This document shows positions 856-64,000 of a DNA stretch of 64,000 nt, piece by piece. The DNA is from a virus, in the IMG/VR virus record IMGVR_UViG_2786546475_000019, positions 974-64,973 of that record. The stretch is one strand, 5' to 3'. The position numbers were made by a program, and so were the translations under genes. Every line of letters begins with the position of its first letter. Position 1 is the stretch's first letter. The notes beneath the pieces were generated by a model. It had not been told where the DNA came from. It worked only from the letters and a program-made list of their open reading frames with translations, and did not search any database.

Positions 856-2217
856 ATGTCACAAGAATCTAAACTTACCTCTGTTTTGTCGCTGCATTTC
901 GATTTTGACGCGAAGTCTTTACTTTGCGGCATGAATCCCGGTTCAGATCGATACTTGACGCCAAACCCGGTTCAATCGCTAGTAGATAGCTTATTTGCTG
1001 GTTGGAATAGCCAGGAAAGCTTGAAAGCCATCACTAATGGCAATCTCGCTAAAATCGATCCGCGATTCACTAAAGCGGACGACGTAGCTAGTTTCGCTGC
1101 TAAACAGCGTCAAACTTTCCGTTCTGAATTCAGACCGGGGACAGACTTGTGGGCAGCTCTTTGCGGCAAGTCTGACAAGTTCATCGCCATTGGACCAGCA
1201 CCTGCAAAGGGGCAGCCTGATGAACGTTTAAAGATTCCCGTTGAATCGATCTACGCGGTCCTTAATCTTTGGTGCGGTACCAAAGCGAATGGCATGACCG
1301 TATCGGGCAACAGGCGTATGCTTGCGCTACTGTTTGTTCTGGCCCTTGAATATGCGGAAGCATTCGCGGAAGCATTAGGGGCAGGGAAAACGAACGAAGA
1401 CGCGGAAGCTGTTGCTAAAAAGACAGTGAAAGCTCATCGGATTCCCGTAGTATTCAAATCGTGGGACACGTTCCAAGATTTGACTAGCGAGCAAATTGCG
1501 GACAATGAACGGGTTCACCAGTCCAACTATACGGAATTGGATCAGGTACGTTTGGCCGTTAAGATCAAACGCGAAGACTGGGGACTGTCCAAGCGGGATA
1601 TCGCTCGACAGATTCCGGGTTTGCGGACCGTAGCCAAAAAGACTGGCGAACTACGCATTAACCAGCGTAGGGCGTCCAATGCAACGGATCGTGCCGATCT
1701 TGTCATCTATGCCGATGACGGGCTGGATATGAACGTCATGGACCGGTTGACCACGGACAACGTAGAAAGCTACGTTGAAGGTGGACCGATTCCAGTGAAA
1801 CGGATCGCTTTCGAACACGTTCCCTTCCTCATCGACGCTACCAAAGAGTACAGCAGTACCCACGCTGCTATTCTTAAAGCGGTTTACCCTGATGCTGTTT
1901 TCAGTGAAGGGGAGGCTATTGGCATCGATGCCGATTCTAAAGCTTTGGAACGCTATTTTCGGTATATTATCGAACATAGCGGTTCAGCGAAACAAGCTTT
2001 GACGATCAAGCAATTACGCGATGCGATCACAAAAATTCCGTCGTCCAAAGACGTGGAAGTATCGCTACGCAAGCTGTACGAAGTGATTGCCGCTGGCGAT
2101 CCAAACGCACTAGCGTTACCAGCTTTGAAAGCTTCAGCGTGGGCCACAATTGTGGATCGCGAAGCGGAAGCGGAAGCGGAAGCGGAAGCGGAAGCGGAAG
2201 CGGAATCCGCCAACTAG
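856..2217 (+). CDS. hypothetical protein; weak ParB/Srx-like signature (MTVSGNRRMLAL); C-terminal (Glu-Ala)7 tail
   Basis: 453-aa ORF, GGAAGGAA RBS-like sequence upstream; flanked by repeat arrays. Confidence 0.55.
   Translation: MSQESKLTSVLSLHFDFDAKSLLCGMNPGSDRYLTPNPVQSLVDSLFAGWNSQESLKAITNGNLAKIDPRFTKADDVASFAAKQRQTFRSEFRPGTDLWAALCGKSDKFIAIGPAPAKGQPDERLKIPVESIYAVLNLWCGTKANGMTVSGNRRMLALLFVLALEYAEAFAEALGAGKTNEDAEAVAKKTVKAHRIPVVFKSWDTFQDLTSEQIADNERVHQSNYTELDQVRLAVKIKREDWGLSKRDIARQIPGLRTVAKKTGELRINQRRASNATDRADLVIYADDGLDMNVMDRLTTDNVESYVEGGPIPVKRIAFEHVPFLIDATKEYSSTHAAILKAVYPDAVFSEGEAIGIDADSKALERYFRYIIEHSGSAKQALTIKQLRDAITKIPSSKDVEVSLRKLYEVIAAGDPNALALPALKASAWATIVDREAEAEAEAEAEAEAESAN
2161..2202 (+). 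repeat. (GAAGCG)x7 hexanucleotide microsatellite encoding (EA)7
   Basis: seven exact tandem units at the 3' end of the 856..2217 CDS. Confidence 0.95.
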
Positions 2218-2333: not shown

Positions 2334-2430
2334 AACCCGGTAGGGGTTTATCACAAGTCGTTGCACCCAGGAACAATACCGGGGTCCGTCGCCCTTAACG
2401 CGACGACACAAGCATGATATTTTGTGCCAC

Positions 2431-2577
2431 GGTCCCCGGACCTAGCTACTCGGACCTAGCTACTCGGACCATGCACCCTGATCCACGGACCATGATCCAC
2501 GGACCACGGACCAAGCTACTTAGGCCAAAACACAATGATACTGGGGTAGGGGTTCAGAATCCGCCGGTCCGTGGACC
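2431..2577 (+). repeat. GGACC/GGTCC array (7 GGACC, 2 GGTCC) with tandem 14-mers GGACCTAGCTACTC x2 and GATCCACGGACCA(T/C) x2, ending in the palindrome GGTCCGTGGACC
   Basis: tandem units at 2438/2452 and 2480/2494; palindrome at 2566-2577. Confidence 0.85.
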
Positions 2578-2612
2578 AAAGAACTTCATTAACGTTTCCT
2601 CTGAAAATTATT

Positions 2613-2676
2613 TTCTGAATTTTTTCAGAATTAGGGGCAATCCGTCCTGCCCTCATTCGTATCTATAGGGAAGTCC
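2613..2676 (+). promoter_or_regulatory. promoter-like module A1: palindrome TTCTGAA-N4-TTCAGAA, then TTTTCA-N6-GGGGCAATCC-N11-CATTCGTATCTATAGGGAAGTCC
   Basis: one of three copies with identical geometry (others at 59266-59322 + and 58653-58708 -); 12 nt before ATG 2688. Confidence 0.6.
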
Positions 2677-2687
2677 ACCTACTGATA

Positions 2688-3257
2688 ATGATAATGACAA
2701 GAAAACTTTATCCAGCATTACCTGATCACCCTGAGTACCGTTGCAAGTCCACGGCTCAAAACAAACATTGTACGTTTCTATCATGTGACGGACTTCGCAA
2801 ACTGAATCTGTACGACGATCCAAGGCAATCTGATAAATGTCCCAAGCACGCCGGACGACCACCAAGTAAACAAACAGCTTTGGCAAAGTACATGGACACC
2901 CATCCTCATGAGGTGGGTTATCATTTGCCGGACCAAGCACCAAAGGTGCATTCCCAATCCCGAAGTGTCGCCGAAGAACTTCACATTCTCCGCACACTTC
3001 TTCAAAACACCCTGAACCAATGCAATACGTCGCTCGACTTACTCGCTAACACTGAGCGAATGACAGTCTTAAGTGATAAGATTGCTAACTTGATAAAAAC
3101 TGACGTATTCCTCGAAGAAAAAACAAAGAACTCCTTGACGCGGGACCAAATCATGGCCGTGCTCTCGGAGATACAACAAGTGATAACTCGGCATTGTTCG
3201 CCGGAGCAGGTCGCACTGATCCGTCAAGACTTCCAAGAACTAACCATTCCTGACTAA
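2688..3257 (+). CDS. hypothetical protein, first gene of the rightward structural operon
   Basis: 189-aa ORF directly downstream of module A1. Confidence 0.6.
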   Translation: MIMTRKLYPALPDHPEYRCKSTAQNKHCTFLSCDGLRKLNLYDDPRQSDKCPKHAGRPPSKQTALAKYMDTHPHEVGYHLPDQAPKVHSQSRSVAEELHILRTLLQNTLNQCNTSLDLLANTERMTVLSDKIANLIKTDVFLEEKTKNSLTRDQIMAVLSEIQQVITRHCSPEQVALIRQDFQELTIPD

Positions 3258-3585: not shown

Positions 3586-5217
3586 ATGTCATACGCAGAC
3601 GAAACAACAGCAAAAGCAGCCGTAGCAAATGCCATTGGCAACGCAACAAGCGTCGATCCAGTGAGCAATACGGAACATGCTGACGTTCTTGATAATTTGA
3701 TCGAGAACATCTTCGCCGCTGATGGTATCACTGTGTATTTCGCCGAACCTCTGTCGGGACTTGGCGATGACGGCGACGTCACAATCTACGAAAACAAAAT
3801 CTACTCGAAAGCTGCCGGAACATGGTCCGAGGAACTTGAATTAACAAGCTGGACTTTCAATACTGCTGATCCTCCCACGTCCACGTCTCACACTTATGCA
3901 ATCTCGACAACCGGCCAATTATACGTAAACGTCGCCGGAACATGGACCTTGCAGCAGTTATCATTAGGCAAATACAAAGGTGCTCACTCAACCACCACAA
4001 AGTATTACGCCAATGATATTATCCTCTACTCAGGGGAATTGCAGTACGCTAACAGCACGCACAATCCTAAGACATATGACGCCGCAGACTGGACTTCGCT
4101 ACCTACTGCGTCATCAACCCACGTACTCCACGATGATATCTCAACACTTCCTTCCTCCCCGGACGGTTACACGCTTGAACTATATGACGGGATCGGCGAG
4201 GGGATGCTCTTTGAGCGGGTATCAAGTGCGTGGGTTTACCGAACACAGACAACAACTCCAGTTGTTGACCTAACCTCTGGCAACGCTTCAACGATTGCAG
4301 CATATTTGTCCGCTGGTCAAATATATCGGTACAATTTAACGACAGGCGAACCATACTACGTTGATAACGCCGGAGCACGGACCTCGCTTCCTCCAATCCA
4401 AACCGCCGTAACAGCCCTACCGTCAATTGTAGACGGTCCCGATCTATTGGTTTGGACCACGGACCCTGACGGGCATCGAGCGTACTTTAAAGGAGCTTCC
4501 GCGTACCAGAAGCTCCCACTTGTCCCAAGTATCCAAGAGTCCGATCAATCACTTTCGGAGAATCGGGAACTAGCGTACAACGCCCGAACACTATCATTCG
4601 ACGGTGACGGCACATTCCGCTTCGGAGACTTAAGCGACAACACCGACGGATATTATGCGGCCTTCAACTCCGGTGCGTTACAGTGGGCCAATGCTACACC
4701 GGAAACGAACCTCACGTCCATCACCCCTACCATTGTCAATTCGCAAAACCTAGCTCTGGTAAACGACGGCACTAGCAACAGTTTCACGTTGAAATACGCA
4801 GGAAGCCAAGATCAAGACTTTACGTTTCCAGCAGATCTTCCAGCTTTAGGTAATATTCTGGAAGTCACGGGCCTTGCAACAAGTTCCATTGTAGTAGGCT
4901 GGCGTAAGCCCGTAAAAGACTGGTTCACGCTAACCTCAGCCACCCCAACTGTGACAGTTGACGGCAATGATAGCAAACGCTTTAAACTTGACCCTGGGCA
5001 CACTCCAATTACAATTGCTTTCACTAATTGTGAGCAACATGATTTTGTTCTCCTCAAGATACGAGGTCACGCTACAAACTCAGTGTCAATGCCTGCCGGA
5101 GCAGACGGTGACGTTTTCTCTCTTAGTACGGATGATACAAAAGCAACTTTAGTCACAGCTATCATTGATGGTTCCGCCATCCATCTTGGCGTAATGAGGG
5201 ACGTATCATGGGCTTAG
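3586..5217 (+). CDS. putative tail fibre / receptor-binding protein
   Basis: 543 aa, Thr/Ser/Gly/Tyr-rich repetitive beta-type composition; adjacent to a beta-helix protein. Confidence 0.45.
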   Translation: MSYADETTAKAAVANAIGNATSVDPVSNTEHADVLDNLIENIFAADGITVYFAEPLSGLGDDGDVTIYENKIYSKAAGTWSEELELTSWTFNTADPPTSTSHTYAISTTGQLYVNVAGTWTLQQLSLGKYKGAHSTTTKYYANDIILYSGELQYANSTHNPKTYDAADWTSLPTASSTHVLHDDISTLPSSPDGYTLELYDGIGEGMLFERVSSAWVYRTQTTTPVVDLTSGNASTIAAYLSAGQIYRYNLTTGEPYYVDNAGARTSLPPIQTAVTALPSIVDGPDLLVWTTDPDGHRAYFKGASAYQKLPLVPSIQESDQSLSENRELAYNARTLSFDGDGTFRFGDLSDNTDGYYAAFNSGALQWANATPETNLTSITPTIVNSQNLALVNDGTSNSFTLKYAGSQDQDFTFPADLPALGNILEVTGLATSSIVVGWRKPVKDWFTLTSATPTVTVDGNDSKRFKLDPGHTPITIAFTNCEQHDFVLLKIRGHATNSVSMPAGADGDVFSLSTDDTKATLVTAIIDGSAIHLGVMRDVSWA

Positions 5218-30530: not shown

Positions 30531-31748
30531 ATGCCTAAATTTACGCTTCTTGATTTTGCGGAAACAGAGACTCAAAGAAAATACGTAAAAGAGTATTTAG
30601 CTGTAAGGTCAATGCAAAAAGTAGCTGATACTTTTTCAGTCAGTAGGCCCGCAGTTTCCAAGTGTTTGAAAAGAGTTCGAGCGTTAGCTATTGTTCAAGG
30701 ATGGGACCCGGACCGTGGGTTTGATAAACCTGTAGCTACTAATCAAATAGCTCACGGAATTAGTAGCTATTACAATTCCGAAGGAGTTAAAACTCAAGAA
30801 TGGGTCAAGTCTTCTCTGAATCTTGATAAACTCAAAGATTTGATGAACGCCCTAGTGGGAGAGTTTAAGAAAGATATTAAACCGATTCGTCCTACAAAGA
30901 TCCTGAAACGAGCTAAATTTTCAGAAGACGCTATTACGTTTTATTTAAAAGGAGATGCTCACTTAGGACTACTTTCCTCCAAAGAGCTTACAGGAGTAGA
31001 AAACCACACTCTGGATTTAGGGATTCAGGTTAATAAAGCAGCTACCGCCAATTTGATAGATCGAGCAGCTCCAACTAAAATTGGAGTTTTAGTGAATTTA
31101 GGAGACGTCCTACACGCTAATGATAGCTCTGGCTTGACTCCTCGGAACCGCCATAAGCTGGACACTCATCTTAATTTTACAGAAGTTGCTCGCGGTCTTA
31201 GAAAATTGCTCTTGTGGGAAGTGGCTCAAGCTTTAAGTAAACACAAAGAAGTTTGGGTAGTTAACGTGAAAGGCAATCATGACCCGGACCCTGCAATCTG
31301 GATCAACGAAATTCTTGAAACAAAATATGAGAATGAACCAAGAGTTAAAATTATTCCCAACGCTCAACCTATCATTCCTTTAGCTTTTGGGGACTCTGCT
31401 GTTTTCTTAAGGCACGGAGACAAAGCCCCTCACTCTAGGGCGTATGAAGTTATTACGTCACATGAGGAGTATTCAGAAGTTTTCTGTAACGCTCGCCCTG
31501 CAAACACCTACGTGTGGTCCGGACATATACATCATGAAACCAAGAAAGAAATTGGTAAAACTAAGATTGAAACGTTCCCAAGCTTAGCTCCAATTGATTT
31601 ACACCACGCTCAATCGTTGTACGGAGCTTCCCGTTCAATGGTAAGTATTGAGATACATGAAGAATACGGAGAGATTGCTAGACGAACTTGTAACCATCGT
31701 ATGGCTAAAGAGTTAATTCGAACTTACGCAATTACTTCGGGTATTTAA
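30531..31748 (+). CDS. HTH domain fused to a calcineurin-like metallophosphoesterase
   Basis: N-terminal MQKVADTFSVSRPAVSKCLKRVR (HTH); phosphoesterase motifs KGDAHLG, NLGDVLHAND, VKGNHD, LRHGD, SGHIHH. Confidence 0.6.
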   Translation: MPKFTLLDFAETETQRKYVKEYLAVRSMQKVADTFSVSRPAVSKCLKRVRALAIVQGWDPDRGFDKPVATNQIAHGISSYYNSEGVKTQEWVKSSLNLDKLKDLMNALVGEFKKDIKPIRPTKILKRAKFSEDAITFYLKGDAHLGLLSSKELTGVENHTLDLGIQVNKAATANLIDRAAPTKIGVLVNLGDVLHANDSSGLTPRNRHKLDTHLNFTEVARGLRKLLLWEVAQALSKHKEVWVVNVKGNHDPDPAIWINEILETKYENEPRVKIIPNAQPIIPLAFGDSAVFLRHGDKAPHSRAYEVITSHEEYSEVFCNARPANTYVWSGHIHHETKKEIGKTKIETFPSLAPIDLHHAQSLYGASRSMVSIEIHEEYGEIARRTCNHRMAKELIRTYAITSGI

Positions 31749-37585: not shown

Positions 37586-38236
37586 TTAAACCATATTCAA
37601 AGTAATTGGAGGTTTGTCGCTTTTTAAAAGTTTAGCTAGCTTTTCTAACGCTCGCTTTTCAAGTTGACGAACTCTTTCTCGCGAGATATTAAGAGTTTCC
37701 CCAATAGTCTTAAGAGGAATCCCTTGGGCTCGTAGCCTCAAAACTAAAGCATCTCGACTATTTAACTCAAGAAAAGCTTTTTCTAGAGCAATAAGCTCCT
37801 CTTGCCATTCTATCAAATCCCTATCAAGACATTCTAAAGGTGTAACAGGGTTATTAAATAGCCCGTGTAAGGTTTGAAACATTGGAGCACGAGCTATAGC
37901 AGCTTTAGCTCTGTCAAGATGAGCTGGATTTGGAGATACTTTAATTAACTCCACCTTGGTTTTCATGTAAGTTATCATTCGTTGTTTCACCCACGGAGTG
38001 GCGTAAGTTGAAAACTGATAACCTTTACTAGGGTCAAATTTTTTGACCGCCTGACATAACCCACTCATTCCTTCTTGAATTAAATCGTCTAAATCAAGCT
38101 TAGAATTTTTCTTGGCAAAAGACACCGCTATCTTGATAACCAATCCTTGATTATCTAACACTAACCGATTGAGTGCTTCATCAGCTTCCTTTCTAGCAGA
38201 ATGATATTTTTGTAATAACTCGTCATTAGTATCCAC
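37586..38236 (-). CDS. sigma-70 family RNA polymerase sigma factor (group-3-like)
   Basis: region 2 DDLIQEGMSGLCQAVKKFDPSKGYQFSTYATPWVKQRM; region 4.2 TIGETLNISRERVRQLEKRALEKL. Confidence 0.85.
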   Translation of the reverse strand: MDTNDELLQKYHSARKEADEALNRLVLDNQGLVIKIAVSFAKKNSKLDLDDLIQEGMSGLCQAVKKFDPSKGYQFSTYATPWVKQRMITYMKTKVELIKVSPNPAHLDRAKAAIARAPMFQTLHGLFNNPVTPLECLDRDLIEWQEELIALEKAFLELNSRDALVLRLRAQGIPLKTIGETLNISRERVRQLEKRALEKLAKLLKSDKPPITLNMV

Positions 38237-38425: not shown

Positions 38426-38805
38426 AAGTCAACCAAATGTTCAGGAACAGGTTGTAGCTCTCCGTTACGTTCAATCAAAACGCTTCCAGGGCAAACTGTG
38501 TAAACTCTATCACCATAGTCAAGTATAGCATGTTCACTAACGGAACAGTGACAAACCGGACAGAGCCACTCGCCATCAATGTTAGGGTGACGAAAATGTC
38601 TCAACGAGCTGTCGTCCTTCAACGTGTTAAAATGTTTCACGAACCCGCCAAGCTTGATCTCTGCTACGGCTTTCGGGTAATTGAGTTCGAGTAGCTCATC
38701 TTGTGTCAGTGTCACGACCTGACCACGTTTAAATGGTCCACGGTCCGCGAAGCGACCATTGAAATAATGAGCACCTGCCGCTGATAGTTTTACTTTGAAA
38801 TTCAT
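38416..38805 (-). CDS. hypothetical protein (CPVCHC motif)
   Basis: 129-aa ORF, overlapping neighbours. Confidence 0.5.
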   Translation of the reverse strand: MNFKVKLSAAGAHYFNGRFADRGPFKRGQVVTLTQDELLELNYPKAVAEIKLGGFVKHFNTLKDDSSLRHFRHPNIDGEWLCPVCHCSVSEHAILDYGDRVYTVCPGSVLIERNGELQPVPEHLVDLWT

Positions 38806-39149
38806 TTCAAAACCTCGTTACACCACTCTTCCAAATCATTCACCCAACGTCCAGCTAAGTTGAACACAAACCATAAATGATACCACTTATGGTCTTTACC
38901 TAACTGCGTTTCGAAAGCTTCCTTCCACCACTCACTTGGTATCTGAAAATTACCCCATCGAGGCGTTTCGTCTCTTGCCCAGCGTTCAAGAACTGTTTGC
39001 ACGGTCCGTGCTACTTGCTTCAAGGAGTCTTCTTCGAATCCTTTCACACTTGCGACAAGTAAATCACGAAGTGATAATCCGTTGTCTTTTGCAAGCTCCT
39101 GAATCTTTTTGCGAGCTACTTCAGACATTTCAATTTTTAATGTTGGCAT
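38802..39149 (-). CDS. possible ribbon-helix-helix DNA-binding protein
   Basis: N-terminal LKIEMSEVARKKIQELAKDNGLSLRDLLVASV has a strand-helix-helix pattern. Confidence 0.3.
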   Translation of the reverse strand: MPTLKIEMSEVARKKIQELAKDNGLSLRDLLVASVKGFEEDSLKQVARTVQTVLERWARDETPRWGNFQIPSEWWKEAFETQLGKDHKWYHLWFVFNLAGRWVNDLEEWCNEVLK

Positions 39150-49578: not shown

Positions 49579-49586
49579 TCTTACCG

Positions 49587-51284: not shown

Positions 51285-51629
51285 TCAGTCTCCTCTTATC
51301 AATTGATAAATTTCTTTGTAAGTATGTACTGGCATATTATACTTGTCCGCTATATCCTGCCAGTTCTCTTCCCACCAGCTAAAAGAATGACACTGACCCC
51401 CAACTTTCAACACTCCAAAGTCTTGGTTGACTTCTACTTTGCGGCCGTGTAAAATTCCGAGTGTTATCAGTTTGCCGTAGCCGTAGCCGTAGCCGTAGCC
51501 GTAGCCGTCGCCGTCGCCGTAGCCGTCGCCGTAGCCGTAGCCGTAGCCGTAGCCGTCGCCGTAGCCGTAGCCGGTCCCGTAGCCGGTCCCGTAGCCGGTC
51601 CCGTAGCCGTCGCCGTGGTTACTTAACAT
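51285..51629 (-). CDS. protein with an N-terminal Gly-Tyr(-Asp/Thr) repeat region
   Basis: GDGYGTGYGTGYGTGYGYGDGYGYGYGYGDGYGDGDGYGYGYGYGYG followed by a ~60-aa non-repetitive domain. Confidence 0.55.
   Translation of the reverse strand: MLSNHGDGYGTGYGTGYGTGYGYGDGYGYGYGYGDGYGDGDGYGYGYGYGYGKLITLGILHGRKVEVNQDFGVLKVGGQCHSFSWWEENWQDIADKYNMPVHTYKEIYQLIRGD
51474..51616. repeat. hexanucleotide microsatellite (GCCGTA/GCCGTC/GCCGGTCCCGTA variants) encoding the GY repeats
   Basis: about 143 nt of near-perfect 6-nt periodicity. Confidence 0.9.
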
Positions 51630-51640
51630 TTGATAGTTCC

Positions 51641-51730
51641 TTATAAATGATCAACTTTGGTCTTTGCTTCACGCGGACCGATGTACGGTTCCAACGTAAA
51701 TAAGTCATTGATATTTTCACATAGTTTCAT
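51641..51730 (-). CDS. tiny coupled ORF (29 aa)
   Basis: ATGA overlap with the TraR/DksA stop; preceded by AACAGGAGAGCAAG, nearly identical to the RBS block of 50190..50981. Confidence 0.35.
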   Translation of the reverse strand: MKLCENINDLFTLEPYIGPREAKTKVDHL

Positions 51731-51933
51731 CTTGCTCTCCTGTTTGCTCGCTTAGCGAGTCGTTGAGTTTCAGGATCGTCCGGAAGTATCACTAGCGATC
51801 CTGCGGTCTTATGGCCGTACACCATGTACCCTGTAGCACGCTCCGTGGTGCTACAGGTTGCACACGTCATTGTGTGCGGAAGTACCTCTAAGCGTTCACT
51901 ATCAATTTGTGTTTTGCAGTTTATGCAGTTCAC
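51727..51933 (-). CDS. TraR/DksA-family C4 zinc-finger protein
   Basis: CINCKTQIDSERLEVLPHTMTCATC. Confidence 0.55.
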   Translation of the reverse strand: MNCINCKTQIDSERLEVLPHTMTCATCSTTERATGYMVYGHKTAGSLVILPDDPETQRLAKRANRRAR

Positions 51934-53062: not shown

Positions 53063-53087
53063 GATAATCCTTTCAAGTGAGAAAAAA

Positions 53088-53134
53088 GTAAACAACGGTC
53101 CCTGCACCTCACGAGTGCATGGTACGTTGGCTAC
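53088..53134 (-). promoter_or_regulatory. intergenic stem-loop cassette B2
   Basis: - strand GTAGCCAACGTACC-ATGCAC-TCGTGAG-GTGCAG-GGACCGTTGTTTAC, then TTTTTTCTCACTTGAAAGGATTATCATG. Confidence 0.7.
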
Positions 53135-53144
53135 TGGCTTGCTA

Positions 53145-53570
53145 CTAAACAATTGCCCTCTGATTCAGTTCAGGAACAACAGTGTGAGCTATCAATATCC
53201 CAAGCTTGACGCCCCAGTTGACGAGTCTTTGATAAGCTTCGTCCAGCTCCGCCAACGTCTTATATTTAAGGGTCAGCCCGCTGATTAGCAAAGGCTCACC
53301 GTCGCGAGTCGCTCGCAACACGCATTTCCCGTCCCCGGTTGTGATAGAAAAGCTGCATTTATCAGCTAGTCGTAGCTGCGGTATGCCAACCATGTTCAAT
53401 TTTCGTCGAACGTATTGGCGAGCCGCCTGGGAGTCCGTAGCATACGTGACCTTGAGGTGCTCAATAATTTGTTGAGTGTCGGACGTGCCATACAGCTCCT
53501 GAAGTCGCTGATCGGTCTCAAACATCAGAAGTTGCTCGATGAAATTCCAAGTCGTGTGATTGTTAATCAT
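53145..53570 (-). CDS. hypothetical protein
   Basis: 141-aa ORF behind cassette B3. Confidence 0.5.
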   Translation of the reverse strand: MINNHTTWNFIEQLLMFETDQRLQELYGTSDTQQIIEHLKVTYATDSQAARQYVRRKLNMVGIPQLRLADKCSFSITTGDGKCVLRATRDGEPLLISGLTLKYKTLAELDEAYQRLVNWGVKLGILIAHTVVPELNQRAIV

Positions 53571-53591
53571 GATAATCCTTTCAAGAAATTA

Positions 53592-53638
53592 GTAAACAAC
53601 GGTCCATGCACCTCATGGGTGCACGGTACGTCAGCTAC
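53592..53638 (-). promoter_or_regulatory. intergenic stem-loop cassette B3
   Basis: - strand GTAGCTGACGTACC-GTGCACC-CATGA-GGTGCAT-GGACCGTTGTTTAC. Confidence 0.7.
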
Positions 53639-53645
53639 CAACTAC

Positions 53646-54014
53646 TTATACTTCAGTCCGCCACTTAAGCCAGAATTCCAACATAGCGTTAAAGTTGTGG
53701 TAAGTCCCGTCGTCTTCGACGTTATGATAATCTTCAAGGTCCAACGGGGCGAACTCCTCAAGTGTCTCACGCAACGGTCTGACGGTGTGTGAACCATTCG
53801 TTGAGTAAGAATATGAAACTTCCGTTAACGCCTCACATCGCACAATAAAGGTTTCGAAAGTTTTCTCAAGCCGAGATTGGAGCCTGCGATCTTTGATTTC
53901 TCGAACTATCAGTACCGGGGTTCCTGGTCCTTTGACCAATAACCCTTTCTTGATTTCGATTCGGTTCTCTTTGACTTCTCGACAGATTTTGAACAACATA
54001 GACTTAGCTTTCAT
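53646..54014 (-). CDS. hypothetical protein
   Basis: 122-aa ORF behind cassette B4. Confidence 0.5.
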   Translation of the reverse strand: MKAKSMLFKICREVKENRIEIKKGLLVKGPGTPVLIVREIKDRRLQSRLEKTFETFIVRCEALTEVSYSYSTNGSHTVRPLRETLEEFAPLDLEDYHNVEDDGTYHNFNAMLEFWLKWRTEV

Positions 54015-54038
54015 GATAATCCTTTCAAGTGAGAAACA

Positions 54039-54085
54039 GTAAACAACGGTCCGGGCTACCCGTGGGCAGCACGGTACGTTGGCTA
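54039..54085 (-). promoter_or_regulatory. intergenic stem-loop cassette B4
   Basis: - strand TAGCCAACGTACC-GTGCTGCCCACGGGTAGCCC-GGACCGTTGTTTAC. Confidence 0.7.
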
Positions 54086-54093
54086 TTGATAGA

Positions 54094-54113: not shown

Positions 54114-54168
54114 ATTAAATCCAGATTGTCAAAGATCAAAATTATCATTTGTGTCCCGCCACTGGCGG

Positions 54169-54284
54169 AAATGATATGATAGCTTACAGACCTACGGTCA
54201 ATCTATTCTATACTTAATATCGGCAATTGGGAAGTAAGAAAATAGATTATTTTTGAAAATAATCAAAACTTTATCATATCATTT
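54169..54284. promoter_or_regulatory. operator pair AAATGATATGATA (54169-54181) / TATCATATCATTT (54272-54284) bracketing the palindrome GATTATTTT-TG-AAAATAATC (54245-54264)
   Basis: exact reverse-complement 13-mers; the identical pair occurs at 59227/59347. Confidence 0.7.
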
Positions 54285-54285: not shown

Positions 54286-54627
54286 TTACACTGTTTCCTT
54301 CTCAATGATAATCCCATTGATTTCGAATTGGTTCGTGACCATATGCCAATGCATATCATTATACAGGAACCGATAGCAAGTTCTCCGATACCTGAACTCG
54401 TGACTAGGCCCATGGGCCGTGTACTCGGGTGTAGGCCATTTATCAATGTACCCTGTTAGAGACACGGACCTTTCATCTGGAAAAAAGAATTCAGGCTCTT
54501 GGACCTTGATCAATTCATCGTTGGACAAGTTACGGAGCCAAAGCCTATCTTCATCAAGATGATAATTTGCCTGCCACTCAAACCAAGCTTCAAACTCAGT
54601 CATGAAACAGTATGGGTTTCTGTTCAT
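54286..54627 (-). CDS. hypothetical protein
   Basis: start moved to ATG 54627 (GGGAG RBS, 1 nt after the methylase stop). Confidence 0.5.
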   Translation of the reverse strand: MNRNPYCFMTEFEAWFEWQANYHLDEDRLWLRNLSNDELIKVQEPEFFFPDERSVSLTGYIDKWPTPEYTAHGPSHEFRYRRTCYRFLYNDMHWHMVTNQFEINGIIIEKETV

Positions 54628-55979: not shown

Positions 55980-58586
55980 TTAAGTTGCCCTTTCTCCCTT
56001 AATCGTTTCCCTTTTAACACCGTCTGGAGTTTCAACAAAACGAAACCCGTTGTCTTTCGGAGCTTCATACGAGAAGCGAACATTGTAGATACATGTCTTT
56101 TGCATCTCGTCAATAGCTATCAAATACATTTCCGCTAGGTTCTGTTCGAACTTCTTACGATTTGCTCGCCCCCCGTCGTCCATGTAGTTCTTATACAGAA
56201 GTTGAAGCTCCACTTTTGATCCAGGCTGTTCTTGGAGCACGGACCGTGCAAAGAGTTCAACGTCGGTTCGGTTCAAGTCCGCAGCTTGCTCTTTATCAAC
56301 CGTATCCACAACAGGAACATTCAAACGCCCCTGAGTTGGCGGTATTTGATACGCTAACAAGGCATACAGAAACGCGGGAGCTTGAGCTTCCAGTTGTTCC
56401 AAAAGAAGTTTCTTTGGAATAACTTTATCTGGCTTCTTGGGTACATTGATAACCGTGATTCGGGTGTCTCCGGGAAGTATCGGACAGAACTCACGATTGT
56501 TCGCGGTGTGAATCCAATGCGACGTATTAGGTATCATGTAAGCGGGCTTGCCTTTTGTGTTGACTGAGATTACTTTGGACGTAACATAGTCTTTAACTTT
56601 TTGATAAACAGTGGAGTCCGAGTTCAAGTTAATCTCCTCAAGAACGCAAAGCACCGCCCCAGCAAGTTCACTGTTGAACGAGCTGACTAACGCGTTCTCC
56701 GCTCGAACGACACCGGGACTAAACAACAATGATAATGCTTCATGCAAAATCGACTTCCCGGTGTCTTGCTCCGTGGAATACAAAAACAGAAACGGCAAAG
56801 GTTCAAACGGTTGTTGTATCAATGACGCGACCCACGCAAACAGATAGTCGTGTCCTTTGCAAATACCGTTCTCCGTGAACCAATTATCCTTACGAACGTA
56901 TTGATCTAGAGAGTGTCCGATATGGTCCAGAATCTTCATCCAAAGATCAAAGTTTCCTTCTTCTGGAGTGTGTCGCAGTTGAGCAGCTCCCCGATTCCAT
57001 AAACGATTACCCGGATATTCAGACTCAAAGGGTCGTGAAACAATGTTCCAGGGCTTCATGATAGCTTCACCCTGCATCTGCTGAATCTCTTTAGTGTTCA
57101 TTCCTTGGCTTTTGAGACCGAGCGTCAGGTTGGCGATCGGTTCTTCGATCCAACCGTTATCATGCGTCTCAATAGCCCAACCGGCGTCCACGCTACCCAT
57201 AATCATGTGACGAATCTGCGTATTCGTGTCCACGTCATACGGGCTACCAGTACGAGACTCTTTTATCACTTTCAACCAACGTGTTCCTTTTGCGATCCAA
57301 CCTTCAATGCCGCCTGGGTCGCCTTTGATTTTCGGAATCTCAATTTTAAGCTTGTTTTCCTTTAGCTGAGTGACAGTTGCTTGACGAGCTATCAATACTT
57401 CGTCAATGGCTTGCATTTCATGTTGCTGGAAAAGCTTAGTCAATTTATGAGCAGGAAGCACCATTCCTTTTTTATCATCTTCTAACGCTCCTGAATCTTT
57501 CACCAAGGTCCAAAGCGGTGGAACATAATTCAAATACGTGCGAGTCCATCCGTTCTTCGTGGTCCACGATTCATGTTCCTTGGCTTCGTTGCCATATCGG
57601 TACACGGCCCATGCTCCGTGTGGAAGCGGATACGCGAAGCAGTTCTGTTTGTGGAGATCAGTTCCGTCACTGATAGTCTGGAAATCGCCTTTAAACCCGA
57701 GTTCTTTGGAAGCTTGCTCCAATAGTTTAGTGTGCGTGATAAACATCTTTCCTTCCGCGTTCCAGTAACCAAACGCGGAGTTGTTATTCATCCACTCAAG
57801 CAAACGCTCATGTTCTTCTTCAAGCGTCACGGACTGTTTGTGCTTGATAATTTCTTCCATACGGTCATCAGCATAAGAGTGTTTCTTCTTACCGCTCACG
57901 ACGCCAATATGATCTCGCCATCCCAGCGGCTCTTTGATATGGGCCTCAGCTTCCTTAATAATTTGAAAGCCGTTCTCTCCCGTTTTCCGTGACCATACCC
58001 ACATATTACAACCGAAAACATCAACTGCAAGGTCAAAGTCGAAACCAGTCTCAAGACATAGTTGACTCAGAACGCCGCGAGCAAGAGCAGCGTGTTCTGC
58101 CCGACTTGTCGTAGTGATAAGGTCTTCAAAGAAAACATATAAGTGGTAGCCAGCTCCACTTTTAGATCGTTGTACTCGCACCCAAGGTACGTTACACGCT
58201 CGTTGTTGAATATCAAGTAGATCAGTCTGCGTTAGCTTGTGCTTGTGCCGAGCTGAGTGGCCCACGATACCGTCAAAGTCGAAAGCAACATATCGCGAGA
58301 TGCATTGCCCAAAGTCCCACCCCGATAAACCAACCATTGAGGCGTGATCTTCCAGGCTGAACTTGATATTTCCTTCATCGTATTTGCCATCAATTCGAAA
58401 ATTCTTCCAGACTTGAACACCGTCAGTCCACTCCCGGTAGGTCCGACCTTTGTATTCCTTATCAACAGGCTCGCCGCCATCAGCGGCTACGTTTACTTGA
58501 ACTTCCATTGTAGGCGAGTATAACGCCGCCATGTGGGGTTCTGCGTTATCACGCAAGAATCGTTCTAAAGCTTCACTTTTACGCAT
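55980..58586 (-). CDS. AEP primase-polymerase fused to an SF3 (D5/P4-type) helicase
   Basis: VAFDFDGIV and SKSGAGYHLYVFF (AEP motifs); Walker A STEQDTGKS in the C-terminal half; start set to ATG 58586 (GAGG RBS), track start 58592 is TTG. Confidence 0.8.
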   Translation of the reverse strand: MRKSEALERFLRDNAEPHMAALYSPTMEVQVNVAADGGEPVDKEYKGRTYREWTDGVQVWKNFRIDGKYDEGNIKFSLEDHASMVGLSGWDFGQCISRYVAFDFDGIVGHSARHKHKLTQTDLLDIQQRACNVPWVRVQRSKSGAGYHLYVFFEDLITTTSRAEHAALARGVLSQLCLETGFDFDLAVDVFGCNMWVWSRKTGENGFQIIKEAEAHIKEPLGWRDHIGVVSGKKKHSYADDRMEEIIKHKQSVTLEEEHERLLEWMNNNSAFGYWNAEGKMFITHTKLLEQASKELGFKGDFQTISDGTDLHKQNCFAYPLPHGAWAVYRYGNEAKEHESWTTKNGWTRTYLNYVPPLWTLVKDSGALEDDKKGMVLPAHKLTKLFQQHEMQAIDEVLIARQATVTQLKENKLKIEIPKIKGDPGGIEGWIAKGTRWLKVIKESRTGSPYDVDTNTQIRHMIMGSVDAGWAIETHDNGWIEEPIANLTLGLKSQGMNTKEIQQMQGEAIMKPWNIVSRPFESEYPGNRLWNRGAAQLRHTPEEGNFDLWMKILDHIGHSLDQYVRKDNWFTENGICKGHDYLFAWVASLIQQPFEPLPFLFLYSTEQDTGKSILHEALSLLFSPGVVRAENALVSSFNSELAGAVLCVLEEINLNSDSTVYQKVKDYVTSKVISVNTKGKPAYMIPNTSHWIHTANNREFCPILPGDTRITVINVPKKPDKVIPKKLLLEQLEAQAPAFLYALLAYQIPPTQGRLNVPVVDTVDKEQAADLNRTDVELFARSVLQEQPGSKVELQLLYKNYMDDGGRANRKKFEQNLAEMYLIAIDEMQKTCIYNVRFSYEAPKDNGFRFVETPDGVKRETIKGERAT

Positions 58587-58603: not shown

Positions 58604-58618
58604 AAATTGATATCATTT
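58604..58618. promoter_or_regulatory. near-palindromic operator-like site AAATTGATATCATTT in the primase leader
   Basis: related to the AAATGATA / TATCATTT half-sites. Confidence 0.45.
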
Positions 58619-58652: not shown

Positions 58653-58708
58653 GACTTCACCCTATAGCTACGAGTGGCGGGATATCGGATTGCCCCACAA
58701 AATGAAAA
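58653..58708 (-). promoter_or_regulatory. promoter-like module A3
   Basis: - strand TTTTCA-TTTTGT-GGGGCAATCC-GATATCCCGCC-ACTCGTAGCTATAGGGTGAAGTC, about 70 nt upstream of ATG 58586. Confidence 0.6.
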
Positions 58709-59017: not shown

Positions 59018-59058
59018 CACGCTACACGTATCACGCTACACGTATCACGCTACACGTA
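59018..59058 (+). repeat. tandem 14-mer CACGCTACACGTAT x2.9
   Basis: units at 59018, 59032 and 59046; followed by ACGT/CGCGTG-rich repeats up to 59225. Confidence 0.9.
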
Positions 59059-59142
59059 CGCGTAGCACGTGGGTACGTGCCAGGGCCAAAGACCTTGAGT
59101 TCTCTTTTAAGTCTCGGAACTGACGTGTAAATTAGTAAGCGG

Positions 59143-59169
59143 TTATCATTTTGCGTGAGCAAATGATAA
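59143..59169. promoter_or_regulatory. inverted repeat TTATCATTT-N9-AAATGATAA
   Basis: perfect 9-bp arms. Confidence 0.6.
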
Positions 59170-59226
59170 TTCTCGCGTGCTCCCGCGTGTCCCGCACGTG
59201 CGACTATTTAAATACGCGACGTGCGT

Positions 59227-59359
59227 AAATGATATGATACATGGTTTTCAAAATACTTGAAAATATTTTCAAAATACGGGGCAATCCTGCCCGGTTTTAT
59301 TCGTAGCTATAGGGGGAAAGTAGACTGTTTTACTTTCCAAAACGACTATCATATCATTT
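59227..59359. promoter_or_regulatory. operator pair AAATGATATGATA (59227-59239) / TATCATATCATTT (59347-59359) bracketing module A2
   Basis: exact 13-mers identical to the 54169/54272 pair. Confidence 0.7.
59257..59322 (+). promoter_or_regulatory. promoter-like module A2: palindrome TTGAAAATATTTTCAA, then TTTTCA-N6-GGGGCAATCC-N11-TATTCGTAGCTATAGGGGGAAAGT
   Basis: same 29-nt spacing from GGGG to CTATAGGG as A1 and A3. Confidence 0.6.
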
Positions 59360-59374: not shown

Positions 59375-60403
59375 ATGGCAGAAGAAACTCAAGCTACCGA
59401 AACTATCATTTCAGAAGGATTGACTCAAGAGCAGTTCGAATCCGTGGGTAGCGACATTCAGGCGATTTCTATCAATGAGATCACCGTCCCTGAAGTTAAG
59501 CTTCGTGGCGTGAACACCGAAGGGGAAGAATACTTGGAACTCAAGGATTCTATCAAATCGCAAGGACTGTTGCAGAACATTACTGTACGTCCCGTCGAAA
59601 TCGCTGGCAAGCAAGGCTACGAACTTATCACTGGGCTCCAGCGATATACTGCTTGCAAGGAACTCGGACATGAGACTATCGACGCTCGTGTGAAAGAAAT
59701 GTCCGAGCAAGAAGCTTGGTTGTGGATGATCCACGAAAACACTCAACGTGTTACGCAAAAAGCGTCAGATATCACCAAGCTCTTGAAGCGTCTGATCGCC
59801 AAAGATCCAACGATGTCTATTCCACGACTCGCGAAGCTTTTGTCGAAGTCCGTGCCCCAAGTACAGAACTATCTGGCACTTGATAAACTGACCGACGAGG
59901 CAAAGGAATTGGTCGATGATGAAACCATCGGTTTGACCAACGCAGTTGCTCTCGCCAAGCTCCCACCTGAGGAGCAGGAAGACTTGCTTGCTGACGCGTC
60001 AACAATGACCGTTGCTGAATTTGTTCCACTTGTAAACGAACGAAAAGAAAAGGTTGATCAAGCCAATCGTGAAGCTCGTGAACAGGAAAAGAACACGTTT
60101 TCTCCGAAACCAAAAGCTCGCAAGAAAGACGATCTCGTCACCGAGCTTGGAATTATCATGGGCACGGAGACTGGCACTTCGCTTCTTATGGAGTGCTTGA
60201 ACGGTCAGGATGTTGATACTTCCAACCAGAATGTCAAGGCAGTTATCACTCAGACAATGGAGTGGGTCCTGAACCTTGATCCAGCGTCCGTCGACGCTCA
60301 ACGAGCGAAATGGGAAGACGCCAAAAAGAAGCGGGAAGAACGAGAAAAAGCGAAAGCTGCCGCTCGTGCCGAACGTGAAAAGGCGAAAGCCCTGGAAATC
60401 TAA
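59375..60403 (+). CDS. ParB-like N-terminal domain protein
   Basis: LKDSIKSQGLLQNITVRPV...YELITGLQRYTACKELGHETIDARV; start set to ATG 59375 (GGAG RBS), track start 59360 is GTG; Lys/Glu/Ala-rich C-terminus. Confidence 0.75.
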   Translation: MAEETQATETIISEGLTQEQFESVGSDIQAISINEITVPEVKLRGVNTEGEEYLELKDSIKSQGLLQNITVRPVEIAGKQGYELITGLQRYTACKELGHETIDARVKEMSEQEAWLWMIHENTQRVTQKASDITKLLKRLIAKDPTMSIPRLAKLLSKSVPQVQNYLALDKLTDEAKELVDDETIGLTNAVALAKLPPEEQEDLLADASTMTVAEFVPLVNERKEKVDQANREAREQEKNTFSPKPKARKKDDLVTELGIIMGTETGTSLLMECLNGQDVDTSNQNVKAVITQTMEWVLNLDPASVDAQRAKWEDAKKKREEREKAKAAARAEREKAKALEI

Positions 60404-61442: not shown

Positions 61443-63412
61443 GAAATTCACACAAAGGGATAAACGTCATCCGCCCCAGCTTAATGAGTAAGCTGGCAGA
61501 AGGTCCAGTACGTCTAAAGCTCACGTACCAAGGCCGACGTTATCCTATGACGTTCAACATCAACAGCGATGCCACTGAAATATCAATTAAGTTCCCCTTC
61601 TCAAGAAAAGGGCTTGAGCTGGTCAAGACTCGCTTCGGGGGACGTAAATGGGACAAAACCAATGAGCGTTGGACCATGCCGCTCACAATGCGTAACTTGT
61701 TCCTAATGGACCTACTCTCAGGAGGCAAACCTCATTTAAATTGGCGTCGTGAGGAAGACTACACCGACTTTATCAAAGAGTTCTGGGCTCAACGAGATAA
61801 ACCTTTCGAGTGTGAATTGTTTCAACATCAGATTGAAATGATAAATCTTGCTCTCAACTCTCGACACGTAATCCTGGCCGCAGATATGGGCCTTGGCAAA
61901 ACGTTAACGGCAATCGTTGTTATGGAGATTCTAGGAATTCCCAAGTGTACTTGGGTGGCTCCTAATGCTCCGTTAGCTCAAGCAAAGAACGAGTTTCGAG
62001 ATTGGCGAACACTGACTCAGGCTCGGTGGCTCACGTATCGTGGAGCCGTAAAATGGCAAAACGAATACACTGGTAAAGCTCCGAAAGCTTTTATCATTGA
62101 CGAATCTGCCTACATTAAAAACAAATCACAACGAACAGATGCTTGTTTGTACATTGCCGACTGCGTACGAGAGGAGCATGGCCTGGACTCATTAATCCTG
62201 CTCCTGTCGGGTAAACCAGCTCCTAAGTCCCCACCTGATTGGTTTAACCAAGTGGAAGCAATTTGTCCCGGAGCTATCAACGAGAATTCAAAATATACTC
62301 TTGAACGTCGCTTAGGTCTTTGGAAACAATCTGAATACGGCGAGTTCCAAGAACTTGTTACTTGGTATGATAACGAAGATAAGTGTGCCCATTGCGGGGA
62401 GATTAAACTTCACCCTAACCATCAAGAGCTTGACTTCGAAGAATTTATTCGTCACGGCTCTACTGGCGAACTAGCCACGTATGAGCGTCACGAATTCCAA
62501 CCGTCGGTAAACGAAGTTATCAAGTTCGGTCAACGGCTTAATGGCTTTTGTGGTGTGTGGCAAAAAGAAGATTGCACTGACTTGCCGCCAAAGCAATTCC
62601 ACGTGGAACAACTCGTTGTTACTCCTGAAATGTTGAACTTAGCTAAGTCTTACATGGCGAAAGCAACATCAGGTTCCGAGTCTTTGATATTTTTACGAAC
62701 ATTATCTGATGGTTTTGTTTACCAGAAGATACCAACCGATCAACTTGCTGTATGCCAAGGGTGTCATGGCGAAAAGCAAGTCGAAATGATAGACCCTGAC
62801 ACTAACGAAACGTTTTGGGCTGATTGTCACACGTGCCACGGTGAAGGATCAGTGCCGCTTATTGAACGAGTCTATCAAACGTACCCAACACCTAAGTTGG
62901 ATTACTTACACAAGTTACTTGAACTTCATAAGGAGACTGGACGATTTGTGACATTTGCAGCTTTCCAAGCATCAGTAGACATCATTACCAACTTTGCATT
63001 GCAAAAGAATTGGCAAGTGATACAAGCTGATGGGCGAGGCTGGATGTTCCACAAAGGTATTGATAACGTTGCTAAGATGAAGAAAGGGGAAATGCTAGAT
63101 TACTTCCAGAAAGGCCCGGACGACCGCGTATTATTCGTAGGTCAACCCGGAGCTGCTGGTAGTGGATTGACATTGCATCGCTCACCCGGAGTCTTCTTTT
63201 ACTCCAATGATAACGTACCGAATAACCGGTTTCAAGCTATTGATCGAGTTCATCGTATTGGTATGCGTGACGATGGTGGTCACGTCTACGATTGTTTGTG
63301 TTTACCGTCGGATAAACGTATTTTGTCCACGTTAAATAATTCAGAACGATTATCATCTATTACTCTTGACCAGTTGAAGAAGGATTATGAGCACTACCAC
63401 CCCACAAATTGA
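61415..63412 (+). CDS. SNF2-family helicase with an inserted DnaJ-type zinc finger
   Basis: ADMGLGKTLTAI (motif I), IIDESAYIKN (motif II), GAAGSGLTLH and QAIDRVHRIGM (motifs V/VI); CQGCHGEK...CHTCHGEG. Confidence 0.75.
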   Translation: MDQARLHEIRNSHKGINVIRPSLMSKLAEGPVRLKLTYQGRRYPMTFNINSDATEISIKFPFSRKGLELVKTRFGGRKWDKTNERWTMPLTMRNLFLMDLLSGGKPHLNWRREEDYTDFIKEFWAQRDKPFECELFQHQIEMINLALNSRHVILAADMGLGKTLTAIVVMEILGIPKCTWVAPNAPLAQAKNEFRDWRTLTQARWLTYRGAVKWQNEYTGKAPKAFIIDESAYIKNKSQRTDACLYIADCVREEHGLDSLILLLSGKPAPKSPPDWFNQVEAICPGAINENSKYTLERRLGLWKQSEYGEFQELVTWYDNEDKCAHCGEIKLHPNHQELDFEEFIRHGSTGELATYERHEFQPSVNEVIKFGQRLNGFCGVWQKEDCTDLPPKQFHVEQLVVTPEMLNLAKSYMAKATSGSESLIFLRTLSDGFVYQKIPTDQLAVCQGCHGEKQVEMIDPDTNETFWADCHTCHGEGSVPLIERVYQTYPTPKLDYLHKLLELHKETGRFVTFAAFQASVDIITNFALQKNWQVIQADGRGWMFHKGIDNVAKMKKGEMLDYFQKGPDDRVLFVGQPGAAGSGLTLHRSPGVFFYSNDNVPNNRFQAIDRVHRIGMRDDGGHVYDCLCLPSDKRILSTLNNSERLSSITLDQLKKDYEHYHPTN

Positions 63413-64000
63413 AATGATTCCGTTAAGCGACATCTATTCAGATGATTCGTTTAACTGTCGTCAAAAATTTAAAGATCGCGAAGTCAGAGGACTTTCCCGA
63501 AGTATCAAAGCTAAGGGATTGTTTACTCCGATTATCGTTCGACCAAAGCCCGGACCTAATGGTGAGAAATACACTATTGTCGCGGGACACCGTCGTAAAC
63601 GAGCCACGGAGCTTGCAGGCCAAACCCATATTCAAGCTATCGTTAAGAACCTTACGGACGACGAAGCTCGAAATATCAATTTGAAAGAGAACTTGGAACG
63701 CCAAGATTTGACACTTTGGCAAGAAGTGAAAGCTCTTGAGTGGTATCGAGATCAACAACTGAACGTCTTTCAAATTATGGACCGTATCAATCAAACAGAA
63801 GCGTGGATTGAGAACCGGCTTCTCGTTCTTCGGATGCCTGCGGGGGTTCAAGAAATGGTTGAAATGGGTCACTTAACTTTAGGCCATATTCGAAGCTTGA
63901 AAAAGTTTATGAATCGTCCTGACTTGCTTGGAAAGTATGCAGCCAAGCTATCAGAGCGGTACGCTTTGGGCAACAAAAACGTCACTCTTGCCCACATTCT
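63387..64000 (+). CDS. ParB-like nuclease domain protein (3' partial, runs off the window)
   Basis: my own translation from ATG 63387 has no stop to 64000: LSRSIKAKGLFTPIIVRP...YTIVAGHRRKRATELAG; absent from the track because it has no stop. Confidence 0.7.
   Translation, partial: MSTTTPQIEMIPLSDIYSDDSFNCRQKFKDREVRGLSRSIKAKGLFTPIIVRPKPGPNGEKYTIVAGHRRKRATELAGQTHIQAIVKNLTDDEARNINLKENLERQDLTLWQEVKALEWYRDQQLNVFQIMDRINQTEAWIENRLLVLRMPAGVQEMVEMGHLTLGHIRSLKKFMNRPDLLGKYAAKLSERYALGNKNVTLAHI

Follow-up and report, generated by a model that had tools for sequence, protein, structure and literature searches.

The 64,000-nucleotide stretch of viral DNA analysed here (positions 974 to 64,973 of IMG/VR record IMGVR_UViG_2786546475_000019, referred to below as the window) contains the 13-mer AAATGATATGATA in exactly four copies, which form two inverted pairs, one near 54 kb and the other near 59 kb. 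The 13-mer is an asymmetric doublet of two tandem TGATA units with a 5-nt period, and its statistics and positions identify the four copies as genuine sequence-specific cis-elements tied to promoters. The reading that we favour, with slightly better than even confidence, is that they are sites of a phage-encoded DNA-binding protein, possibly of the ParB type, which regulates the promoters of the replication module; "operator" would then be their best label.

No copy of the 13-mer occurred in 100 dinucleotide shuffles of the window, and the expected number ranged from 0.002 (order-1 Markov model) to 0.095 (order 6), the higher-order models already including the four copies themselves. When one or two mismatches were allowed, two extra matches were obtained, both in unrelated coding sequence. 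The original prediction, made from the letters alone, had called four exact copies far beyond chance by comparison with 4^13; the excess survives the Markov and shuffle nulls, but 4^13 is the wrong null, since TGATA itself is 4.3-fold over-represented. The positions reported for the pairs (54169/54272 and 59227/59347), their start-to-start distances of 103 and 120 nt, and the three related sites at 59143-59169, 58604-58618 and 2682-2697 were confirmed, and a half-site TTATCATTT at 54143-54151, which had not been listed, was added. For the 8-mer half-site AAATGATA, 27 matches were counted against 2.6 expected, nine of the 27 falling in intergenic DNA (3.4 kb, 5% of the window). The interiors of the two pairs cannot be aligned; therefore the 13-mers are conserved in their own right, and their origin as remnants of a duplication was rejected.

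The link to promoters is provided by three promoter-like elements of identical spacing, GGGGCAAT-N16-CGTA[G/T]CTATAGGG (also written GGGGCAAT-N16-CGTAxCTATAGGG), designated A1, A2 and A3 (Table 1). As had been claimed, a TGATA-type element is found at each of the three copies, 25-54 nt downstream of the CGTA box. At A2, which points at the gene of ParB1, it is the inverted 13-mer, 45 nt past CGTA and abutting the ribosome-binding site; at A3, which points at the primase gene, it is the near-palindrome AAATTGATATCATTT, 54 nt past CGTA, just ahead of the ribosome-binding site and 18-32 nt upstream of the ATG (58586); at A1 it is CTGATAATGATAATGA, 25 nt past CGTA and lying over ATG 2688. A -35-like block followed by 16 nt and CGTA is the promoter layout of group-4 sigma factors, i.e. 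those of the extracytoplasmic function (ECF) type, and the three copies are presumed to be sigma-dependent and read by the phage sigma factor. The paired arrangement around a promoter that was originally proposed holds for the 59-kb pair, which brackets A2 with 13-mers centred at roughly -79 and +41, but does not hold for the 54-kb pair, which encloses no A-type copy. The geometry of the A2 pair would allow a loop like that of the gal operators, and looping is plausible. The two clusters are 5 kb apart and flank the primase operon.

The same element was found in related phages. The closest homologues of ParB1 are about 35% identical at best, and their contigs, of 40-75 kb, show the synteny primase <- intergenic region -> ParB as in the window. 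A profile search of IMG/VR added 46 loci, and 54 related loci (numbered with the prefix L) were compared. TGAT[A/T]TGAT is present in the region upstream of ParB, that is, in the divergent primase/ParB intergenic region, in 40 of the 54 loci, and in 32 of these 40 all copies in the locus are confined to that region. The consensus of the element is TGATTTGATTTT; L008, L010 and L022 carry variants of TGATATGAT that share 12 of 13 bases with the window site, and L028 carries a less exact one. Boxes related to the A-type promoter, TTGCAC-N17-CGTA/CGTT..TATAG, are found upstream of both ParB and primase, and in the relatives inspected the element lies 30-45 nt past the CGTA/CGTT...TATAG box and 50-95 nt ahead of the ParB start codon, downstream of the promoter and before the ribosome-binding site.

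Two arrangements were distinguished among the relatives. In the first, one copy stands near the primase start and another 50-95 nt before the ParB start, each facing its gene; in the second, both ends of the region carry an inverted pair, together with 14-15 bp palindromes (TGATT-N5-AATCA, TGATTTTAAAATCA) at both start codons, which AAATTGATATCATTT of the window matches in position. Period-6 variants take the same positions in other, more distant relatives, namely TGATATTGATAT in L017, L027 and L030 and TGATTTTGATTTT in L013 and L014, as do ATGATGA repeats in L045 and unrelated repeats in L011 and L012. Taken together, the compared loci point to a family-wide, evolving cis-element associated with the two divergent promoters, and since both orientation and arrangement vary, it is duplex DNA rather than RNA that is likely to be recognised. 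The regulatory character assigned to the sites by the original prediction is upheld in so far as they are promoter-tied cis-elements that recur in the same place in 40 of the 54 related loci; two of the binders that it named failed, as described below. The exact pattern of two 13-mers separated by N90-120 was unmatched in IMG/VR and in JGI metagenomes, and close relatives of the window ParB1 were likewise not found in these two collections. In the strain variants L001-L005 both regulatory regions are identical and therefore give no polymorphism information. A full-text literature search on the motif strings and on phage ParB regulators yielded no description of this element.

The unit of the 13-mer is at the same time a word of the whole genome, a relation that had escaped the original prediction. 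No pentamer of the window is more over-represented than TGATA/TATCA, of which there are 496 copies where 116 are expected (4.3-fold); the top 7-mers all contain TGATA, and TGATAA is the top hexamer. Within genes it occurs 225 times in sense and 216 times in antisense, compared with 84 and 88 after synonymous-codon shuffling (2.6-fold); an independent gene set gave z = 26 against synonymous shuffles, and coding counts were 411-441 against 155-172. The enrichment is seen in each phase permitted by the stop codon TGA and has no orientation bias relative to genes, while XGATA (X = A, C or G) is depleted to about 0.6. The units are evenly spread, with no preferred pair spacing. Close doublets (5-12 nt) are depleted, with 12 observed against about 29 expected (p = 3e-4), five of the 12 being the regulatory doublets; counted as pairs no more than 12 nt apart, there are 14 in 64 kb, six of which are regulatory sites. 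This depletion of close pairs implies that single units are favoured everywhere and that doublets are largely kept for control regions. As a separate observation, the longest TGATA-free stretch, 405-2274, extends over 1869 nt (mean gap 129 nt) and comprises the gene 856..2217 and its upstream DNA; it may be a recently acquired segment.

Related phages carry words of their own. In L025 the hexamer TGATTT occurs 42 times against 5.4 expected and ranks first of 2080 hexamers; TGATAT and GATATC are the words of L026 and L027, GATTAA that of L028, L051 and L058, and TGATT that of L007. Counted outside the intergenic region, the unit word of a locus's own element led the TGATNN words in 10 of 24 loci (binomial p = 5e-7) and ranked 1-4 of the 2080 hexamers in L025, L026, L027 and L051, the unit words of the relatives giving synonymous-shuffle z values of 3.6-10. 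Since the genome-wide word matches the unit of the phage's own element, the operator-like sites and the dispersed word appear to be tied to one reader, and since the word differs between related phages, a phage-encoded reader is favoured.

Several candidates for this reader were considered. Those named originally were a ribbon-helix-helix-like protein (38802..39149), a helix-turn-helix (HTH) protein (30531..31748) and the ParB-like proteins; the first matches no family and the second belongs to a DNA-repair exonuclease family (phrog_704, E 6e-60) and is not an HTH regulator, so that of the three only the ParB-like proteins are still plausible. ParB1 matches PF02195 at 3e-14 and PF17762 at 4e-8, and the profile of its family matches the N-domain and HTH of Spo0J/Noc/KorB structures with E values of 3e-28 to 1e-13. 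ParB2 keeps the canonical GHRR (GxRR) and ENLER (ENLxR) motifs; the window includes its HTH (..NQTEAWIENRL..). By these matches and motifs, both are classified as genuine ParB N-domain plus HTH proteins. In six of the seven loci with a TGATA element, compared with five of the other 19, ParB2 has a residue other than R at the site aligned to R of the canonical ParB HTH "KSR" (Fisher p = 0.02, uncorrected for phylogeny); this site would correspond to a specificity determinant of ParB versus Noc. Moreover, "GQSRGW" of ParB2 is confined to the three phages with the GATTAA word, which come from two ParB2 lineages; as to these lineages, L068 is 52% identical to L006 and 43% to L079 and L086. Because of this weak co-variation of its HTH with the element, ParB2 is the leading, slightly favoured candidate. 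The 48 early proteins examined included no classical repressor HTH, members of the ParA and KorA families were absent from the early genes of the window and from the annotated neighbourhoods of the relatives, and the small protein encoded after the primase was dropped as a reader since it is not conserved in the window.

From these observations we infer binding of a protein and, with it, repression and looping, in the following form. The 13-mer would be a strong composite site, made of two tandem TGATA units and an AAA flank and read by a phage-encoded protein. Such sites lie in the operon leaders of the replication module, about +35 to +60 from the presumed ParB and primase starts, with a period-6 variant over the start codon of gene 2688, a second copy upstream of the ParB promoter at about -79 and an equivalent inverted pair enclosing a second regulatory region 5 kb away. 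An occupied downstream site might block or tune transcription of genes that include that of the binder, which would amount to autoregulation, and the paired inverted copies may cooperate through looping or clamp loading. The reader would most likely be one of the two ParB/Noc/KorB-type phage proteins, with ParB2 slightly favoured; to this protein the approximately 500 single TGATA units dispersed over the two strands would offer further, weak sites, doublets being excluded from genes.

Several points weigh against this reading. The known sites of ParB, Noc and KorB are palindromes of 13-16 bp and not tandem pentamers 100 bp apart, and the intergenic region resembles an origin in its tandem 14-mers, GC-rich inverted repeats and AT-rich palindromes. 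That the phage sigma factor reads the A-type promoter is an inference, the sigma gene being known from the window, and the 54-kb pair encloses just a weak sigma-70-like match on the gene strand. The distance of 120 bp corresponds to 11.4 helical turns and that of 103 bp to 9.8, so that helical phasing does not hold for both pairs alike. As regards the reader, changes in the recognition helix of ParB1 do not follow the word: with one DNA motif in common, the window and L008 differ in their ParB1 helices, and L028 differs from L051 and L058. The co-variation of ParB2 comes from few independent lineages in a small table.

The arrangement can be compared with that of known systems. In KorB-OB of RK2, VirB and BisD, a ParB-family protein is encoded beside its own sites, which are short and dispersed, some at promoters and some distant, and combines autoregulation with long-range action (PMC11790492, PMC10770331, PMC12409273). 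The likeness to KorB-OB is that ParB1 and ParB2 are classified as true ParB N-domain plus HTH proteins and that the family profile matches KorB structures. However, OB is a 13-bp palindrome present in 12 copies, whereas the phage site is an asymmetric tandem doublet in distant inverted pairs, accompanied by about 500 extra single units, and no KorA-like partner or ParA was identified. The palindromic site of ParB-parS and KorB-OB has no counterpart among the 13-mers, the site at 58604-58618 alone being near-palindromic in the window; judged from the sequence, the features of the ParB-parS family are thus partly present, with the protein there, a site that is not a palindrome and no ParA. P1 ParB reads short asymmetric boxes (box A heptamers and box B hexamers) in varied orientations and spacings within one parS, a flexibility that matches the variable arrangements in the present phage family; P1 parS differs in being one centromere that is bent by IHF and works with a partner ParA, whereas here the sites are in promoter leaders of a probably virulent phage.

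Similar geometry and dispersal are known from repressor systems. The gal operators OE and OI, which form the GalR-HU loop, are identical operators that enclose a promoter from upstream and downstream at a distance of about 114 bp, and the copies here, at about -79 and +41 and 120 bp apart, are placed alike; the gal operators, unlike these, are palindromic and recognised by a dimer of the LacI family, of which no member was found among the early proteins of the phage, and looping would be an extrapolation. The stoperators of L5 gp71 in cluster A mycobacteriophages and the P1 C1 operators are asymmetric repressor sites of 13-17 bp, repeated many times over the genome beyond promoters. Those of L5 and P1 are 20-35 full-length sites oriented with transcription in temperate phages, whereas here there are four full sites and the dispersed element is a 5-mer lying in both orientations (225 sense, 216 antisense).

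A role of the sites as origin iterons is the main rival and a serious alternative, one that the original prediction had missed and that we consider improbable as matters stand. According to it, the TGATA/TGATT repeats bind the superfamily 3 (SF3)-type primase-helicase and flank an unwinding region, the 54-kb cluster is a second cis site like P4 ori/crr, effects on transcription are secondary, and the dispersed pentamers could serve priming or helicase loading. SF3 initiators do read short repeats, such as the GAGGC pentamers of SV40 T antigen, the octamer iterons of P4 alpha and the 5-nt iterons that geminivirus Rep recognises between divergent promoters; in these systems pentamer-scale tandem and inverted arrays lie between divergent promoters beside the initiator gene and combine origin firing with autorepression. 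The sites in the window flank, beside the primase-helicase gene, a 780-nt divergent region with tandem 14-mers (CACGCTACACGTAT three times at 59018-59059), GC-rich inverted repeats (a CGCGTG/CGCACG cluster within 59170-59226) and AT-rich palindromes; comparable CGCGYG inverted repeats occur in the divergent regions of relatives, and in two-copy relatives the inverted copies stand 300-450 nt apart around such a region. The two clusters of the window, 5 kb apart, lie on either side of the primase operon. There is also a mild strand skew of TGATA, with a top:bottom ratio of 1.35:1 to the left of 59.3 kb, whatever the gene orientation, and of about 0.98-1.0 to the right (89 sites), the count spanning 1-59300 against 59301-70403 with L001 supplying the sequence past the window; this skew, however, shows no clear inversion across the putative origin. 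Moreover, the third promoter copy, in the structural module and far from any region of origin type, likewise has a TGATA doublet behind it (at 2682), which sets the phage apart from the SF3-iteron systems; the feature conserved across relatives is the position relative to promoter box and ribosome-binding site; and no DNA-binding domain was identified in the C-terminus of the primase. To our knowledge, genome-wide enrichment of the unit has not been described for SF3-initiator systems.

It is quite unlikely that the 13-mers are host sigma-70 promoters with an extended -10 element (TGaTATGAT = TGnTATnAT), set face to face and interfering with each other as in P2 and 186. TGATATGAT fits TGnTATnAT, the complementary TATCAT is -10-like as well, and in L008 and L010 each copy faces the flanking gene about 55-75 nt before its start codon. 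Most relatives, however, have TGATTTGAT at this place, which lacks the essential A at -11 and therefore cannot be a -10 element, and many have back-to-back inverted copies or palindromes. Within the window none of the four copies has a -35 match, the 13-mer nearest ParB points away from it, and the 54169(+) copy would yield antisense transcription only.

We would give very little weight to an RNA element, in which the inverted 13-mers pair in the transcript and close a domain of about 100 nt that acts as a processing site, leader structure or small RNA. Predicted folds do close on the 13-mers (z = -4.0 and -4.4), and four-copy relatives carry an inverted pair in each leader, with a potential hairpin of 11-12 bp; the predicted fold, however, is a consequence of the inverted repeat itself, and pairing needs neither identity of the 13-mer between loci nor the near-identity seen in L008 and L010. 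If transcription starts at A2 the upstream arm falls outside the transcript, and a joint transcript of the two arms is improbable; in two-copy relatives neither copy would find a partner on its own RNA, the elements stand in either orientation to transcription, and enrichment on both strands genome-wide is a property of the DNA.

Sites of a host factor, either Fur (GATAATGATAATCATTATC; 7-1-7 form TGATAATnATTATCA, unit TGATAAT) or IHF (WATCAANNNNTTR), are about as improbable as the RNA element. The segment 2682-2697 fits 15 of 19 positions of the classical Fur box consensus, TGATAA is the top hexamer, and some relatives' copies (YAATGATTTGATT) fit the IHF consensus; but the 13-mer has a period of 5 nt and not 6, the resemblance to the Fur box is limited to 2682-2697, and the IHF consensus leaves the conserved TGAT unexplained. 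In addition, the word differs among related phages (TGATTT, TGATAT, GATTAA), tracking the element of each, and co-varies weakly with a phage protein. Fur, IHF, CRP/FNR and CodY, compared by their consensus sequences, were discarded by period and between-phage variation. An invertible promoter was discarded as well, five independent assemblies having one orientation and the relatives' copies flanking the whole divergent region; no recombinase was found among about 60 products scanned (the early genes and a few others), most of the structural module, approximately 3.3-30.4 kb, lying outside the scan.

The locus presents a concrete pairing of a conserved replication-promoter element, a unit selected genome-wide and two ParB-type proteins encoded beside them. 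Should this link hold, ParB/KorB-type regulation would extend to phages of the virulent type, with genome-wide enrichment of the own word co-evolving with a phage protein. In practical terms, the order promoter box, operator, ribosome-binding site describes the regulatory grammar of a large uncultured phage family from marine and other metagenomes. Many phages encode orphan ParB-like proteins, for the most part of unknown role (PMC12704722). It is tempting to speculate, at a low level of confidence, that each phage writes a private signature word of 5-6 nt hundreds of times on both strands, synonymous sites of its genes included, to be read by an orphan ParB-CTPase-type protein, ParB2; the promoter doublets would be loading or operator sites, and through the single units the protein could coat or organise the phage DNA or mark it as self against that of the host. 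If true, this would be a new function for these widespread proteins and a new kind of genome-wide self-marking.

Table 1. Sites, promoter-like copies and genes of the window that bear on the element (positions within the window; a dot marks features given without strand)
Feature	Position	Strand	Remarks
13-mer AAATGATATGATA	59227..59239	+	on the upstream side of copy A2, at about -85 to -73 relative to the presumed start site
13-mer AAATGATATGATA, inverted	59347..59359	-	between copy A2 and GGAG, the ribosome-binding site of ParB1; 45 nt past the CGTA box
13-mer AAATGATATGATA, left member of second pair	54169..54181	+	intergenic, between two minus-strand genes
13-mer AAATGATATGATA, right member of second pair	54272..54284	-	abuts stop codon of gene 54286..54627
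Half-site AAATGATAA (TTATCATTT on + strand)	54143..54151	-	faces 13-mer 54169 across hairpin CCGCCACTGGCGG (54156-54168)
Near-palindrome AAATTGATATCATTT, TGATA/TATCA overlapping	58604..58618	.	primase leader, just upstream of ribosome-binding site
Inverted half-sites TTATCATTT-N9-AAATGATAA	59143..59169	.	middle of divergent intergenic region
CTGATAATGATAATGA, two TGATA units, 6-nt period	2682..2697	+	25 nt past CGTA box of copy A1; overlaps ATG 2688
Promoter-like copy A1	2634..2670	+	points at gene 2688..3257
Promoter-like copy A2, GGGGCAAT-N16-CGTAGCTATAGGG	59278..59314	+	points at ParB1
Promoter-like copy A3	58660..58697	-	points at primase
Phage sigma factor (regions 2 and 4)	37586..38236	-	presumed reader of promoter copies A1-A3
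Primase-helicase, DUF5906, SF3-type, weak AEP match	55980..58586	-	rival candidate binder as origin initiator
ParB1, ParB N-terminal domain and ParB HTH	59375..60403	+	first gene downstream of the 59-kb 13-mer pair; candidate binder
ParB2, runs 229 nt past the window end; 280 aa in full contig	63387..64000	+	leading candidate binder

The window is part of a contig of about 72 kb that was independently assembled from several Tara Oceans samples, and its source is an uncultured marine phage without cultured relatives, which is probably virulent. A DNA search with 53.5-61 kb against 50,697 deposited phage records gave no matches, and the primase and ParB gave remote matches at most against the same records. 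The scan of 185,579 species genomes returned a single match, a contig of a metagenome-assembled genome, and therefore gives evidence neither of a host nor of a prophage. The 543-aa product of 3586..5217 had no tblastn matches, a family search not having been made for this protein.

The genes are laid out in three blocks: plus-strand structural genes, 25 kb of small early genes on the minus strand, and the replication module. The last consists of the minus-strand primase-helicase (DUF5906), the 780-nt divergent intergenic region and a plus-strand series in the order ParB1, a conserved 222-aa protein, SNF2 helicase, ParB2, DNA polymerase A and ligase. Products of the early block include the sigma factor, thymidylate synthase, deoxynucleoside monophosphate (dNMP) kinase and MazG-like, CsrA-like (44384-44770) and DksA/TraR-type zinc-finger (51727-51933) proteins, together with a weak third ParB_N-like (41021-41377) and a weak sigma region-4-like (33580-33996) match.

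Other repeats were noted beside the sites. The minus-strand reading of the hairpin at 54156-54168, CCGCCAGTGG, presumably equals the core of a lambda operator, which is probably a coincidence. A 23-nt element, TTTGATCTTTGACAAT[T/C]TGG.., occurs at 54118-54140(-) and at 708-730(+) with 91% identity, both copies having equal orientation to downstream genes and being followed by hairpins. At 2273-2334, upstream of gene 2414..2668, there are three 20-nt direct repeats AATATCAACTAGCTGCACGCAA, each with TATCA.

With regard to words avoided, GCGC is near-absent from the window (2 against about 353 expected) and does not occur in a further 6.4 kb of the contig, and ATTAAT (4 against 43) and CTCTTC (5 against 37) are also avoided; GTTTA is avoided in the relatives L007 (1 against 31) and L006 (11 against 55). 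This pattern looks like restriction avoidance. A leader cassette, consisting in order of a hairpin with compensated stem changes, GACCGTTGTTTACT, and AAAGGATTATCATG with the ribosome-binding site and start codon, is repeated before four minus-strand genes (49522-49579, 53053-53135, 53561-53638 and 54005-54087). Finally, gene 51285..51629 holds a long (GCCGTA)n-type repeat (51444-51634) and would encode a Gly/Tyr-rich repeat protein.

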